NCBI GenBank assembly: GCA_034521025.1 | Contig: JAXHMZ010000005.1 | Span: 26,352-90,351 of the forward strand | Source of the DNA: Candidatus Campbellbacteria bacterium | GTDB lineage: Bacteria; Patescibacteriota; Minisyncoccia; Phycocordibacterales; JAXHMZ01 | Direction: 5' to 3' | Length of the DNA stretch: 64,000 nucleotides | Program-made: the position numbers and the translations under genes | Notes under the pieces: model-generated | What the model was told of the DNA's origin: nothing | The model's database searches: none | Seen by the model: only the letters and a program-made list of their open reading frames with translations | Shown here: one piece after another, positions 29,908 through 35,958 of the stretch | Numbering within the stretch: position 1 is the stretch's first letter | How the letters are laid out: each line of letters opens with the position of its first letter

Positions 29908-30492
29908 CTACAAACCGCTGACGGCGAGTACTTCGTTTATTTCCTTTATGAGAGTCCTTCTTTCTTTTCCATCAATGTATTCGCTCTCGTTCTCTCCCAG
30001 AGGCATATTTGACACCCGCAAAAAAACATCGGAGTCGGTTCCGTATCCCAACACCTGAAGAATTTTGGAGACAAATACAAGCTCGTAGATATCGAGGTGG
30101 TCATTGGATACATTTTTCATTCCAAGAAAACCCTTTTCCACGACTTCGTATAGTTCAATGTCCGGCGACTCCCCCACCAAAAGGCGTTTTAAAAGAACCG
30201 AGATCTTTACCACAAGCGTTCTTTTTTCGCCCTCCGTCGTGGCAAAGAACATATTCTCAAACGGATATGCGTTAGTGATCCTCCACCCGCCTTTACCTTC
30301 AACGAGAGACACTTCCACAAAGGAGAACGGCTGTAAAGCGTAGCGTAACTTTGACTTTTGCAGGCGAATGCTTCTCGCGGACGCGGTTATTGTCCCAATG
30401 TCTTTGGTTAATAGAGTGAAAATTCTGTTGGCTTCTCCGACATTACGAGCCGACAGCACGAAAGAGTCTGTGGTATAAACTGTATTTGCCAT
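29908..30492 (-). CDS. recO: DNA repair protein RecO (short form)
   Basis: N-terminal OB pattern 'FVLSARNVGEANRIFTLLTKDIGTITASARSIRLQKSKLRYALQPFSFVEVSL'. Confidence 0.6.
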   Translation of the reverse strand: MANTVYTTDSFVLSARNVGEANRIFTLLTKDIGTITASARSIRLQKSKLRYALQPFSFVEVSLVEGKGGWRITNAYPFENMFFATTEGEKRTLVVKISVLLKRLLVGESPDIELYEVVEKGFLGMKNVSNDHLDIYELVFVSKILQVLGYGTDSDVFLRVSNMPLGENESEYIDGKERRTLIKEINEVLAVSGL

Positions 30493-30501
30493 AAACCTCC
30501 A

Positions 30502-33500
30502 TTAAAGCTTCTCTACCACTAGCGTTACCTCGAAATCTCCTATTGATTGGGTTGTGCCTGTTTGAGTATTGTCTATAGGACCGACAATTAACTTTTCGGC
30601 ATTAGAAGCTTCTTTTATCTCCTCTTTATACTCCTCAACTATAGAGTCGAATTCTTCTTTGTCCGAATGGAAATAGACGTTGACCAGGTCGCGCGGATTC
30701 AAACCTAAGTTTTTGCGTTCATTTTGGACAGTCCTGATGACCTCGCGGGCGATACCTTCTTTTCTGAGCTCTTCTGTTATATGACTATCTATTTCAACCT
30801 CGCTTTTGCCTTCTTCATATTTGACCGACTTAACATTCATCTCATCGGAGATTATAGATTCCATAGTATCGTCTAACTTTTCGCCCCCATAAGAAAGCGA
30901 GGCGAGAGGTTGGCGCACTTTTATCCCCTCTTTATTCCGCTCCTCAAGTCCTTCGGAGACTATTTCACGAACTCTTTTCATCTTCTCTAAGATATCTCCG
31001 TTTGGCTTCTTTAAAGTAGGCCAAGACTCGAGGTGTACACTTTCCGGATCGCTCTCACCCCTGAGAGAACGATATAGGTAGTCGGCATAAAATGGCATAA
31101 ACGGAGCTGATATCAAAGCAAAAGTCTTTAGAGTAGTATAAAGCACGCGACGAGACATCTTTCCATCTTCTGAATTTTCACCCTTGAAACGATCTCTGGA
31201 ACGGCGAAGATACCAAGTAGACAGATCTTCCACAAAATCAAAGAGGGGTCTCGTGGCTTTATCTAACTCGTAGTTGTCAAGCGAGTGTCGCACCATTTGC
31301 TCGGTTTTGGAGAGTCTAGATTCGATCCATATATCCAGAACATTTTCGCTTTCTTCGAGCTCTTTCTCTTCTTCTAAGGATCTATCCCGATATATTTCGT
31401 AGAATTTATATACGTTATCAAGCCGGCCGATCACTTTTCGTGAGATCTCGGCAACACCTTTCTCGGAGAAATTGAGCGATTCGGCGCGTACTACCGAGGA
31501 AGATGACATATACAATCTGAGAGAGTCAGCTCCATATTTGCTTATTACCTCCAATGGGTCGGGATAGTTCAAAAGTCGTTTGGACATTTTTTGCCCGTCT
31601 TCAGAAAGAATTATGCCGTTGACTATTACGTTTTTGTAGGGCGACTTGTTAAATAGTCCAACTCCTAAGACAAGCAAAGAATAGAACCACCCTCTGGTTT
31701 GATCCAGACCTTCAGCGATAAAGTCCGCCGGGAAACCTTTGTTCCCTTCCGGTTCAAATATATCTCTATTCTCAAAAGGATAATGATGCTGGGCATACGG
31801 CATAGAGCCGGATTCATACCAGGTGTCAAAAACTTCAGCTACTCTGGTAAGCTCAGTTCCTGACTCGGAATAAACTTTTATTTGGTCAATATAAGGACGG
31901 TGAAAATCAAACTGTCTTCCGGTGTCCGTACGAACGTCAAATCTTATCGGAAAAGCAAACCTGCCAACACTCTGTCGATGAAGAAGCTCTTCGTTGATCT
32001 CTTTGTTTTCTATACTCCGTTCTATCTCAGCGACAATACCTTGGTGCGCAACTACAAGAACCGATTCACCGGCGTGCTTATGAGTCGCGTTTTCTAGAAA
32101 CCGATTGACTCTATCACTCACTTCTTTCCAACTTTCACCGTTGGTGCCTCGAACCGCCTCAAATTGCTCTTGGGGTGGAAGACTGAAATATTCTTTTCTT
32201 TCTTCTTTTACCCTCTCGCTATCCAGTGTTTCTTTTTCCCAATCTCCGCTATCCACCTCGCTAACTTCCTCTGCGATCTTCACTTCAAGACCCAATTCCT
32301 CGGCTACTATCTCGGCTGTCTTTCTAGCCCGAAGTACAGGAGAAGAATAAATAACATCAACAGAACCGGATAGCTTCTTGGCAGCCTCTTTCGCCTCTTT
32401 GACACCAGTCTCAGTTAGTCCGTACTTATCGAGAGAAGAATCCAATACATTCAATACATTCTTCTCGCTTTCGGCGTGGCGCATTGTGATTATTCTTGTT
32501 AACGCCCCACGTGATTTCTTGCGTAATTCTTCAACTGAACCAATAACTTCCATCTCCTTTGTCTCCTCATTTCTCCAAACTGGCAGAGGGGAACCCCAGT
32601 AGCGCGAACGAGAAACAGCCCAATCGCGAGCGTTTTCCAGCCATTTGCCAAATCTTCCCGTACCTATGTGATCAGGGGTCCAACTTACTCCTTCATTTGC
32701 TTTGATGATCTCATCTTTTATGTCAGTTACCGCAATAAACCAGGAAGTAGTAGCGTAATTTAAAAGCGGTGTGTCACAGCGCCAGCACAAAGGATACGAG
32801 TGGGTTATTTTCTCTTTGGCGAAGAGAAGGTTGTTCTCGGCAAGCCACTTTATTATCTTGATATCAGTAGCCATATGATCTTCCCCATCTTCGTCTTTTG
32901 GCTTTACCTTTTCTCCGGCAAAATCAACTACGTCTTCGGTAAACGCTCCCTCAAAATTGACATGGTGAACTATAGGTATATTCTTCTCTTGCGCGAGCAA
33001 GAGATCTTCCTCACCGAAGGCGGGTGCTAAGTGCACAATACCGGTTCCGTCGTCCGTCGTTACATAATCAGCGTCATATATTTTCCAGGCGTTTTCTTTG
33101 TTAGGAAGATCTTTATCTAAAAAGTACGGAAATGGTGGCTTGTACGAAAGCCCGACCAGATCACTACCCTTCATTTCTTTGGTTTGGATTTCGCTTTTCC
33201 CAGCCAACCAAAATAGCTGGTGCAGTTTGCCTTCGTTTGATGAATCCTTTTGTCCGGCTTCTTTGGCGAAAATATAAGTACCCGGATCAATGTCGCTCTT
33301 TAAGTCAAAGCCCAATTCCTCAATATTTTCCGGAACGGTAACGGCAATATAGTCAATATCTTTGTGCACGCCGACCGCCACATTACCCGGAAGCGTCCAC
33401 GGCGTAGTTGTCCAAGTCAAAAGAAAAGTTCCCGGCTCTTCTTTTAGTTCGAACTTTGTCGTTACGGAAAGATCCTTGATGTCTTGATATCCTAAATTAA

Positions 33501-34164
33501 CTTCAAAGTTGGAAAGCGTAGTGCCACAACGCGGACATAGGTGCATAGACTTAAAGCCCTCGTACACTAGATCTTTCTCAAAAAGAGTCTTGAATATCCA
33601 CCAGGTGGTTTCCGAGTATTCCGGATCCATAGTTTTGTAGTCATTTTCCATATCCACGAAACGTCCCGTGCGGGGAACGATCTTTCTCCATTCATCTCTG
33701 TACTTCAAAACCGAACCTCTGGCTTCCTCATTGAACTTATCTATTCCGAGATCCTCGATCTCACGTTTTGTATTAACGCCGAATTTTTTCTCGATCAAGT
33801 TCTCTATAGGCAGACCGTGTACATCCCACCCCCAAACTCTTCTCACGTGTTTTCCTCGCATTGTTTGAAAACGCGGGATTATATCCTTAATAGTCCCGGC
33901 CAAGAGATGGCCATAGTGCGGCAGACCGGTGGCGAACGGAGGACCATCATAAAAGACAAATTCCCCTTCCGGCGAAGGTTTGGAAAGAGACTTAAGAAAT
34001 ATATCGCTTTCGTTCCAAAATTCGAGGATGTCTTCCTCTCTTTTAGATACTTCACTTTCAGCTTTTATTTCCACGTTTTCTTTAGAGTTCTCTTTTTCCT
34101 TTTTTTTCACGTTTTCTTTCGTTTTTTTGGAATTCATCTCTTGCGAGTTTAGGTCATTGCTCAT
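30502..34164 (-). CDS. ileS: Isoleucyl-tRNA synthetase (type 2) with an inserted histidine-phosphatase (PGAM/SixA-like) domain and a K/E-rich N-terminal extension
   Basis: 'PPFATGLPHYGHLL' HIGH, 'GQKMSKRLLNYPDP' KMSKS, editing-domain and 'WAVSRSRYWGSPLPVW' motifs; ~200 aa between 'GSVEELRKKSRG' and 'FDFHRPYID' containing 'RHAESEKN', 'SSPVLRARKTAEIV', 'VLVVAHQG'. Confidence 0.9.
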   Translation of the reverse strand: MSNDLNSQEMNSKKTKENVKKKEKENSKENVEIKAESEVSKREEDILEFWNESDIFLKSLSKPSPEGEFVFYDGPPFATGLPHYGHLLAGTIKDIIPRFQTMRGKHVRRVWGWDVHGLPIENLIEKKFGVNTKREIEDLGIDKFNEEARGSVLKYRDEWRKIVPRTGRFVDMENDYKTMDPEYSETTWWIFKTLFEKDLVYEGFKSMHLCPRCGTTLSNFEVNLGYQDIKDLSVTTKFELKEEPGTFLLTWTTTPWTLPGNVAVGVHKDIDYIAVTVPENIEELGFDLKSDIDPGTYIFAKEAGQKDSSNEGKLHQLFWLAGKSEIQTKEMKGSDLVGLSYKPPFPYFLDKDLPNKENAWKIYDADYVTTDDGTGIVHLAPAFGEEDLLLAQEKNIPIVHHVNFEGAFTEDVVDFAGEKVKPKDEDGEDHMATDIKIIKWLAENNLLFAKEKITHSYPLCWRCDTPLLNYATTSWFIAVTDIKDEIIKANEGVSWTPDHIGTGRFGKWLENARDWAVSRSRYWGSPLPVWRNEETKEMEVIGSVEELRKKSRGALTRIITMRHAESEKNVLNVLDSSLDKYGLTETGVKEAKEAAKKLSGSVDVIYSSPVLRARKTAEIVAEELGLEVKIAEEVSEVDSGDWEKETLDSERVKEERKEYFSLPPQEQFEAVRGTNGESWKEVSDRVNRFLENATHKHAGESVLVVAHQGIVAEIERSIENKEINEELLHRQSVGRFAFPIRFDVRTDTGRQFDFHRPYIDQIKVYSESGTELTRVAEVFDTWYESGSMPYAQHHYPFENRDIFEPEGNKGFPADFIAEGLDQTRGWFYSLLVLGVGLFNKSPYKNVIVNGIILSEDGQKMSKRLLNYPDPLEVISKYGADSLRLYMSSSSVVRAESLNFSEKGVAEISRKVIGRLDNVYKFYEIYRDRSLEEEKELEESENVLDIWIESRLSKTEQMVRHSLDNYELDKATRPLFDFVEDLSTWYLRRSRDRFKGENSEDGKMSRRVLYTTLKTFALISAPFMPFYADYLYRSLRGESDPESVHLESWPTLKKPNGDILEKMKRVREIVSEGLEERNKEGIKVRQPLASLSYGGEKLDDTMESIISDEMNVKSVKYEEGKSEVEIDSHITEELRKEGIAREVIRTVQNERKNLGLNPRDLVNVYFHSDKEEFDSIVEEYKEEIKEASNAEKLIVGPIDNTQTGTTQSIGDFEVTLVVEKL

Positions 34165-34248: not shown

Positions 34249-35958
34249 CTACATTTTCTCCGGCACTCGAATACCTAGAATATACAAACCATTCTCCATC
34301 GCGGCAATAAAGCCTTTTGTTAACGCAAGCTTGTACGGACTATATTCATCGTTGGGATCTGCTATTTTTTCTTGCGCGTAAAAGGCGTTGAACTCACCGG
34401 CTATTTCGATCAAGTAAGTGACTACGTAGTGCGGTGCATTCTCTTTTTCCGCGCGTAGCACAACATCAGGAAAGCGTTTGAGCAATCGCTCTAATGGATA
34501 AATGCTCTCAGGGGCATTTTCAAATGAAGGTTCAATTCCTTCAGAGCAAGCTTTTTCTATCACTGAACGAGCACGCACAGTAGAATATTGCAAATATGGA
34601 CCTGAGTCACCTTCAAAAGAAAGTGACTGCTCCATATCAAAAGTAACTTCTTTGCCTATTGCCTGTTTGAGTATGGTGTATTTTATCGCCGCTACCCCCA
34701 CATCTCGCGCAATTTCCTCGCGCGTCTCTTCGGAATATTCTTCTTTCATCTTCTCGATGGAACGGTTTACTGCCTTCATAACCAAGTCCTCGCCGGAGAT
34801 TATGTTCCCTTTTCTTGAAGACATTTTTCCTTCCGGCAGTCGAAGTATATTGTGACTGATATGTCTCGTTTTCTTGGCTAATTCAGGAAAGATCTTTTCC
34901 ATAGCTACCAGAAGAACTTTGAAATATTCATTTATCTCGTTCCCAGTTACTACAACGGATGAGTCGTAAGGATAGCGTTCGTGTTTCTCTTTTGCCAAGG
35001 CCAGCTCTTTTGCCTCATAAGTTGGCAGTCCTTCGGAGTTAACAAAAACTCTGGTATGCAAACCGTGGTCTTCCCCTTTGAAAACGATAGCGCCGTCGCT
35101 TTCCGAGAATACGCCCTGGTCAAGTCCAGAGAGAACAACCTCTTTCCCTTTTTCGGCTACCTCGCTTTCGAAAAAGTATAGATCAAATTTTGTTCCCAAT
35201 AGATCGTAAATGCGCTCGAAGTCCTCTAAGCTCCAACGCCTACCCGTCTCGTAAAGATTGTTTATTTCTTCGTTACTCTTTTCGTAGATCTCTTTGTTGA
35301 TCCGCACTATAGCCGCGCGGGCTTCCTCGGATTCTTCATAGGCGCGAGATCCAAACGCATAAGCGTTTCCGAGAAATTCGATCTTCGATTTCAGGGAGTC
35401 GCTTTCCGCGGGAAAATTTCCATCGTCTTGTGTCATCCCCCAGACAGCTTTCGCTACGTGCATACCCACGTCTCCTTGATAACTTGCTCTTTTGACTCGA
35501 GCTCCAGAAAATTCAGTGAGGCGCGAGAGGGATTCACCAATAACGTTGGGCATTAGATGTCCAATATGAAATTCCTTGAAAGGATTGGGGTCTGTATATT
35601 CTATTATCACTTTTTCGCCCTCGCGATGATCGCTCCTGCCAAAATTCTTACTATCAGCATTGATATCTTTCAGAAGATCCGTGAAAAATTTTCTTGTGTA
35701 AAAGAAATTTATAAAACCGGGACCGGCTACTTCTATTTTCTCTACCTCTTCGGGTTTTATATTATTTATCTCACTCTCTAATTCTTCGGCCAGATCACGC
35801 GGGTTCTTTCCTGTTTTTTGGGAAAGAACCATAGCTATATTTGTTGAGACATCACCGAAAGAGATATCCGTGGGGAACTCCAGGTGTACGTCATCCACCT
35901 CAATAGAAAGACTATGAAGCGACTCTATGATTGCCTGTTTTATGCGACCTTCTATCAT
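34249..35958 (-). CDS. argS: Arginyl-tRNA synthetase
   Basis: 'TDPNPFKEFHIGHLMPNVIGESL' HIGH region, ArgRS N-terminal add-domain and C-terminal DALR region. Confidence 0.9.
   Translation of the reverse strand: MIEGRIKQAIIESLHSLSIEVDDVHLEFPTDISFGDVSTNIAMVLSQKTGKNPRDLAEELESEINNIKPEEVEKIEVAGPGFINFFYTRKFFTDLLKDINADSKNFGRSDHREGEKVIIEYTDPNPFKEFHIGHLMPNVIGESLSRLTEFSGARVKRASYQGDVGMHVAKAVWGMTQDDGNFPAESDSLKSKIEFLGNAYAFGSRAYEESEEARAAIVRINKEIYEKSNEEINNLYETGRRWSLEDFERIYDLLGTKFDLYFFESEVAEKGKEVVLSGLDQGVFSESDGAIVFKGEDHGLHTRVFVNSEGLPTYEAKELALAKEKHERYPYDSSVVVTGNEINEYFKVLLVAMEKIFPELAKKTRHISHNILRLPEGKMSSRKGNIISGEDLVMKAVNRSIEKMKEEYSEETREEIARDVGVAAIKYTILKQAIGKEVTFDMEQSLSFEGDSGPYLQYSTVRARSVIEKACSEGIEPSFENAPESIYPLERLLKRFPDVVLRAEKENAPHYVVTYLIEIAGEFNAFYAQEKIADPNDEYSPYKLALTKGFIAAMENGLYILGIRVPEKM

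Follow-up and report, generated by a model that had tools for sequence, protein, structure and literature searches.

Organization of the ileS locus

The window, that is the whole 64-kb stretch of DNA that was analysed, carries ileS on the reverse strand between argS and recO (Table 1). A sequence-only reading had described ileS as one 1220-aa frame exceeding the length of a type-2 isoleucyl-tRNA synthetase (IleRS) by about 180-200 aa. We confirmed the open reading frame, and since insert-free relatives are ~1032 aa long (P0389; P. megaterium IleRS2), the excess amounts to ~190 aa. The interval assigned to the insertion, 31909-32511, corresponds exactly to aa 552-752 of the ORF frame, and every motif quoted from this region was located, namely GSVEEL (aa 542-547), RHAESEKN, SSPVLRARKTAEIV, VLVVAHQG and FHRPYID (aa 754-760). 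The GC content stays at 0.42-0.47 without a break across both insert junctions, and no second histidine phosphatase was found in the 64-kb window.

Table 1. Features of the ileS locus, with positions in the window and residue numbers of the 1220-aa protein
Feature	Position	Strand	Basis
ileS, type-2 isoleucyl-tRNA synthetase with nested phosphatase domain	30502..34164	(-)	single ATG-started 1220-aa ORF; TIGR00392 above cut-off
Lys/Glu-rich N-terminal extension, aa 1-40, before the conserved IleRS core	34045..34164	(-)	translation; Pfam tRNA-synt_1 match begins at aa 46
HIGH signature HYGH, aa 83-86	33907..33918	(-)	motif location and homologue conservation
CP1 editing-domain signatures, WTTTPWTLPGN aa 251-261 to GTGIVHLAPAFGEED aa 373-387	33004..33414	(-)	motif location
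CP2 helix and CP2-CP3 linker, RFGKWLENARDW...SRSRYWGSPLPVW, aa 504-530	32575..32655	(-)	motif location; homologous yeast segment
CP3 subdomain, N-terminal part, aa 531-553, two strands and a helix ending GSVEELRKKSRG	32506..32574	(-)	AF2 secondary structure; CP3 definition of C. albicans / yeast IleRS
Nested histidine phosphatase domain, aa 554-746 (Pfam match aa 558-721)	31927..32505	(-)	
RHAESEKN, aa 562-569: Arg562 and nucleophilic His563 of the RHG motif, plus Asn569	32458..32481	(-)	homologue conservation
SSPVLRARKTAEIV, aa 607-620: second phosphate-binding Arg612	32305..32346	(-)	R612 invariant, S608 at least 90% conserved
EVDSGDWE, aa 636-643: Glu636, predicted general acid	32236..32259	(-)	homologue conservation
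VLVVAHQG, aa 702-709: second catalytic His707	32038..32061	(-)	homologue conservation
CP3 subdomain, C-terminal part, aa 747-789 (FDFHRPYID ... DTWYESG), leading back into the second half of the Rossmann fold	31798..31926	(-)	motif locations
KMSKS signature KMSKR, aa 859-863	31576..31590	(-)	motif location and conservation
Anticodon-binding domain, aa 944-1087, and type-2 C-terminal domain DUF5915, aa 1061-1219	30508..31335	(-)	PF08264 104.9 bits; PF19302 58 bits
argS, directly upstream of ileS	34249..35958	(-)	Pfam ArgRS domains
recO, directly downstream of ileS	29908..30492	(-)	RecO_N match

The host is a complete type-2 IleRS

The protein matches TIGR00392, the NCBIfam equivalog model of ileS, with 857.6 bits (cut-off 621.4) in two stretches separated by a break at aa 552, and its match to Pfam tRNA-synt_1 (PF00133; E=3.2e-138) is also divided into two stretches. 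AF2 structure prediction, from which the N-terminal extension (aa 1-40) was omitted, gave a full-length model with a pLDDT of 93 and a pTM of 0.87, the blocks around the junctions reaching 92-96. The best Foldseek matches of this model are 8c8w, 8c8v, 8wnd and 1ile, with 31-34% identity and a TMt of 0.81-0.91, while the type-1 structures 8c9e and 1qu2 share 21-23% identity with it. Type-2 IleRSs are the eukaryote/archaea-like, mupirocin-insensitive form of the enzyme.

The HIGH, editing-domain and KMSKS elements had been described as intact, and we found them as HYGH, WTTTPWTLPGN with GTGIVHLAPAFGEED, and KMSKR. Among 119 homologues, the HIGH residues H53, G55 and H56 (trimmed numbering) are invariant or nearly so, as are D, H, R, P, Y, I and D in the C-terminal part of CP3, and the KMSKS residues K829 and K832 (trimmed numbering) are invariant. 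The CP1 editing peptides are invariant or nearly so in our alignment A2. The host part is an ordinary, complete type-2 IleRS, which has kept its HIGH and KMSKS signatures and its CP1 editing, anticodon and C-terminal domains intact. It does not belong to the acquired mupirocin-resistance enzymes MupA/MupB, whose exception models gave 672-690 bits for a cut-off of 1900. It is not a GNAT-containing IleRS of the NF040702 type either (296.5 bits vs 1999), and no GNAT domain was detected in it by Pfam.

The insertion lies in the catalytic domain, as proposed, but not in the catalytic core as the sequence-only reading had it, since the site is the peripheral and structurally variable CP3 and not the core Rossmann sheet. 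In yeast IleRS, the CP2-CP3 linker (453-ARDWNVSRNRYWG-465) lines the tRNA-CCA / reveromycin pocket (PMC7955072). The N-terminal part of CP3 in the window protein, aa 531-553, contains no cysteine.

The insert is predicted to be a full-size capped histidine phosphatase

His_Phos_1 (PF00300) matches the full protein at aa 558-721 with 115.6 bits (E=3e-33; gathering cut-off 21.7), and the insert excised from its host, for which this search had been suggested beforehand, with 120.2 bits (E=1.1e-34). These E-values exclude a chance match. When the insert alone was submitted to structure prediction, it was modelled as an independent alpha/beta lobe bearing a cap (pLDDT 96, pTM 0.92), also in line with what had been anticipated. 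Short linkers joining it to the CP3 surface loop are predicted with high confidence. The whole catalytic set (R562, H563, R612, E636 and H707) is present in the window insert. The Gly of the RHG motif is replaced by Ala, as in PspA 4ij5. Indeed, RHAESE is also the motif of this solved phosphoserine phosphatase, of which a His-to-Ala variant has been deposited as 4ij6.

As judged from these models, the insert is a full-size, capped branch-1 histidine phosphatase of the PspA/PhoE/CobC type, of ~190 aa. The earlier assignment to the histidine phosphatases is therefore retained, but not its qualification as SixA-like: the score on the SixA model TIGR00249 is below cut-off, and SixA, which is small and cap-less, aligns over 136 residues only. 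Other equivalog families were considered in turn. PspA, though structurally the closest family, gave 90-96 bits (NF045917, cut-off 350) and the alpha-ribazole phosphatase CobC 82-87 bits (TIGR03162, 162.9). For the cofactor-dependent phosphoglycerate mutases (dPGM), the dPGM_arch model gave 86-92 bits (225), GpmB 49-53 bits (261) and other dPGM models 25-46 bits (300-409). Because the insert scores far below every equivalog cut-off, it is not an orthologue of any characterised enzyme and a substrate cannot be transferred to it. An intein-like or mobile-element origin was also rejected, the junctions being devoid of splicing motifs and the domain having an ordinary enzyme fold.

The nested domain is conserved among Patescibacteria IleRSs

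A protein 100% identical to that of the window (P0121) is present in NCBI on a 267-kb contig of a Candidatus Campbellbacteria MAG. Each of the 120 nearest homologues (49-64% identity) combines PF00133 with PF00300, and one or more phosphatase copies were found in at least 140 of the best 150 representatives of 50%-identity clusters. Identical junctions were observed in >250 independently assembled proteins (NCBI, JGI, ENA, Logan, Tara), and the segment bracketing the insert measures 195-211 aa in 119/119 homologues. The nested phosphatase is a clade-wide trait of Patescibacteria IleRSs and not peculiar to one genome. With hundreds of independently assembled homologues sharing the same junctions, we are dealing with an in-frame domain insertion, as had been concluded from the intact motifs around it, and not with a fusion, a frameshift or a chimera. 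This PF00133 plus PF00300 architecture is visible in precomputed Pfam tables, and the proteins themselves bear no annotation beyond 'class I tRNA ligase family protein', for which reason its description should be useful for annotation.

The insert is less conserved than its host, with 30% identity to the window sequence vs 57-70% for the catalytic parts of IleRS. Nevertheless, R562, H563, G587, R612, R685 and H707 are invariant in the 119 full-length homologues, and conservation in the same set reaches at least 90% for N569, S608, E636 and E677. R562 and H563 were found in 150 of the 151 single or first CP3 copies (the remaining sequence being gapped) and in 21/21 other copies. The position of Glu636 is occupied by E in 144/151 CP3 copies and by D in 6, and H707 is invariant in the 172 embedded copies examined. 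The cap region (aa ~637-676), which in histidine phosphatases normally shapes substrate specificity, shows no conserved position family-wide. Such an unconserved cap gives no clue to the substrate and, as far as the alignment goes, would also fit a non-specific enzyme.

Other nesting sites and tandem copies

Related IleRSs carry the phosphatase at CP3, at three other loop positions, or in tandem, as verified on the junction sequences. Tandem copies at a second CP3 site occur in P0245, P0259, P0366 and P0309. The domain is nested between WFESG and FPADFIAEG in P0294, P0317, P0382, P0304 and P0384. In P0296, P0329, P0332, P0360, P0368, P0241 and P0010 it follows KMSKS, within the first loop of the anticodon domain. 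The residues R, H, R and H are kept in every copy at these further sites, and one of the six copies nested between WFESG and FPADFIAEG has Asn in place of the acid Glu. The four nesting positions, which from class Ia structures we take to be spatially non-equivalent, include one near the anticodon end. The domain is thus unlikely to stand in one fixed geometry to the synthetic site, and channelling models lose weight accordingly.

Domain identities between site classes are ~27-30%, a level at which independent capture and intragenic duplication are indistinguishable. A single ancestral capture, with later duplication and loss inside the gene, could account for all alternative sites, and the recurrence in IleRS would then reflect history and not repeated selection. 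On a rough neighbour-joining tree of the hosts, the alternative sites fall in small clusters among the more divergent branches. GNAT domains were found besides the phosphatase in the relatives P0169, P0380 and P0384. When the GNAT-phosphatase cassette of P0384 was used as a query, no free-standing two-domain protein was found and free-standing phosphatases were returned.

A free-standing form is encoded beside ileS

The closest free-standing relatives, P0410 and P0413, share 43-46% identity with the embedded copies and score 176-195 bits on the HMM of the embedded domain, the median of the embedded copies being 176. In 12 analysed loci (L015 and 11 of 29 metagenome loci), ileS is insert-free and is immediately preceded by the gene for this free-standing form. 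The layout of L015 is repeated in contigs L016-L018, and that on the P0410 contig is alike. This gene, of ~200 aa, stands between argS and ileS and usually overlaps the ileS start codon. The spacing of the two genes ranges from -11 to +38 nt, with an overlap in 8/12 loci, and the IleRS HMM match omits exactly the positions matched by the upstream phosphatase gene. ArgRS is encoded upstream of the phosphatase-ileS pair in L021, L024, L035 and L038, and RecO downstream of ileS in L025. The synteny of these relatives, argS-[phosphatase]-ileS-recO, is that of the window, argS-ileS-recO.

Among the metagenome-scan loci with close relatives, 14 are nested and 11 adjacent. A scan of genome contigs with a single protein, which picked out low-complexity peptides, returned only six nested loci together with unrelated free-standing phosphatases. 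No ileS was seen in the DNA examined around three weak relatives of the metagenome scan (44-56 bits), nor was ileS adjacent to the distant free-standing relatives P0412 and P0415 (loci L019 and L020), and the insert-free ileS of locus L014 has no phosphatase neighbour. Since the genes of such small genomes are commonly packed tightly, adjacency by itself carries less weight here than it would elsewhere.

A probable dedicated partner phosphatase of IleRS

A phosphatase that is either nested in IleRS or abutting its gene points to an undescribed working partnership with IleRS. From the sequences compared here, it is probably a dedicated partner phosphatase of IleRS, predicted to be catalytically competent and made covalent by nesting. 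The window protein would then be a bifunctional enzyme, combining a type-2 IleRS with a branch-1 histidine phosphatase in a CP3 surface loop. The phosphatase would belong to a dedicated 'IleRS-associated' subfamily that exists in Patescibacteria as a separate gene or as a nested domain. By analogy with the superfamily, His563 would attack a phosphomonoester to form a phospho-histidine intermediate, the phosphate being held by Arg562, Arg612 and His707. Glu636 would protonate the leaving group, and water would then free the phosphate. The conservation of these residues makes it very likely that the domain is active. That this activity is functionally tied to IleRS, instead of being carried along with it, appears likely as well, and the strongest evidence for the link comes from the alternative nesting sites together with the free-standing form in an operon with ileS. 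As for the substrate, the chances seem about even that it is small and phosphorylated, a nucleotide or a metabolite handled in the vicinity of IleRS; otherwise the phosphate would sit on tRNA(Ile) or a protein. The preference for a small molecule comes from the capped fold and from the closest solved relatives, which are all small-molecule phosphatases.

The first alternative is that of a passenger: a housekeeping phosphatase unrelated to IleRS, for instance a broad-specificity PhoE-like enzyme of nucleotide or sugar-phosphate salvage. It would have been captured once from the neighbouring gene, retained only because it is needed by the cell and reliably expressed as part of ileS, and spread to other positions by intragenic duplication and loss. 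Such an enzyme would agree with the closest solved relatives all acting in small-molecule metabolism, with the unconserved cap and with nesting positions that are spatially non-equivalent. Moreover, the tandem copies show that intragenic duplication does happen, and an apparently unrelated pairing has a precedent in NF005567, the fusion of RNase HI with an acid phosphatase, whose model gives the insert 90 bits. However, all close relatives were found nested in ileS or abutting it, across IleRSs only 34-58% identical to the window host sequence. Besides, argS is equally adjacent, yet the phosphatase domain was never seen in argS. The start/stop overlap with ileS in 8 of the 12 loci and the retention of the pairing in two genetic formats, a classic signature of functional coupling, also argue against a passenger, which we consider rather improbable.

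Somewhat less probable still is a macromolecular substrate, for which IleRS would give the specificity and the phosphatase the chemistry. This could be a 3'-phosphate, a pyrophosphate or a 2',3'-cyclic-derived phosphate left on tRNA(Ile) by toxins or nucleases, or phospho-Ser/Thr/His placed on IleRS by a kinase toxin. An unconserved cap around an invariant catalytic core would fit recognition by the host, CP3 starts at the CP2-3 linker lining the tRNA-CCA pocket, and several tether sites are compatible with a flexible macromolecule. On the other hand, the capped fold is closest to small-molecule enzymes and the cap-less protein phosphatase SixA aligns only in part. To our knowledge no histidine phosphatase acts on RNA ends, which also counts against this reading. 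There is no evident reason why IleRS alone should need such repair, and no partner kinase or toxin is encoded in the window or in the related loci.

A non-catalytic module, in which the enzymatic function would be lost and the domain would serve on CP3 as a structural spacer, an interaction platform or a ligand sensor, is very improbable: the CP3 of human IARS1 is a known protein-interaction surface and the window protein has RHA instead of RHG, but at every nesting site the domain keeps R562, H563, R612 and H707 without variation, and E636 at a level of at least 90%, although it is otherwise only ~30% conserved, and RHAESE also occurs in a solved enzyme, the phosphoserine phosphatase 4ij5. 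Finally, an artefact, whether through chimeric assembly, a frameshift or a sequencing error that joined two genes, is refuted by the comparative data, namely the unbroken reading frame and composition, the identical NCBI protein and the recurrent junctions, together with a structure prediction confident over both junctions.

Returning to the partner phosphatase, a more daring version would make it a third catalytic site of IleRS acting on an IleRS-specific ligand. It might strip a blocking 3' phosphate or pyrophosphate from tRNA(Ile), destroy a phosphorylated inhibitor mimicking the adenylate, or reverse the phosphorylation of IleRS by a kinase toxin. We regard this as tentative. If true, it would represent a new synthetase-embedded repair or defence activity with a standing comparable to CP1 editing, and the GNAT domains nested in some relatives would follow the same logic.

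Bacterial aminoacyl-tRNA synthetases are usually seen as architecturally conservative; new catalytic domains are rare in them and in eukaryotes have repeatedly revealed new biology. The sequence-only reading knew of no synthetase with a phosphatase module at this position, and our full-text literature searches turned up no published description of a phosphatase-IleRS architecture. The further nesting sites and tandem copies in related IleRSs, and the free-standing relatives directly upstream of insert-free ileS, are likewise new. Across much of the candidate phyla radiation, IleRS is tied to an intact phosphatase, which occurs in two genetic formats and at four nesting positions. If the link is functional, a phosphorylated compound or end matters specifically for isoleucine charging in these organisms. 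The system also offers a clean natural case in which a neighbouring gene and a nested domain are alternative states of one partnership, useful for studies of domain insertion.

Comparison with known systems

The host resembles the solved type-2 IleRSs (P. megaterium IleRS2 8c8v/8c8w, T. thermophilus 1ile and yeast 8wnd) in domain order, signatures, CP1, CP2/CP3 and the DUF5915-type C-terminus. In these structures CP3 has 60-70 residues, a variable topology and no foreign domain, whereas that of the window protein hosts a ~190-aa phosphatase. The CP3 of T. thermophilus IleRS binds zinc, and that of the window protein is free of cysteines. The structural relatives of the insert, PspA 4ij5 (Hydrogenobacter thermophilus), PhoE 1h2e (Geobacillus), CobC 6e4b and the glucosyl-3-phosphoglycerate phosphatase 6s2q, are free-standing enzymes, while the insert is nested. 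Histidine phosphatases are also part of the mycobacterial RNase HI/acid phosphatase (NF005567), of the MutT1 Nudix-histidine phosphatase (3fjy, 9cxx) and of PFK-2/FBPase-2 (1bif). These are end-to-end fusions, in contrast to the window domain, which is nested and has an aminoacyl-tRNA synthetase as its partner.

The only curated model that we found of an IleRS with a foreign enzymatic domain is NF040702, 'isoleucine--tRNA ligase, N-acetyltransferase domain-containing'. A GNAT domain accompanies the phosphatase in some relatives of the window protein but is absent from the window protein itself. With 241-321 bits for a cut-off of 1999, neither the window protein nor its GNAT-bearing relatives are members of this family. 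The CP1 editing domain of IleRS, ValRS and LeuRS gives a precedent for a hydrolytic 'connective polypeptide' nested in the Rossmann fold, which provides a second active site per chain. CP1 is universal and ancient, has another fold and acts on aminoacyl-tRNA, whereas the phosphatase is lineage-specific, lies in CP3 and also exists as a separate gene.

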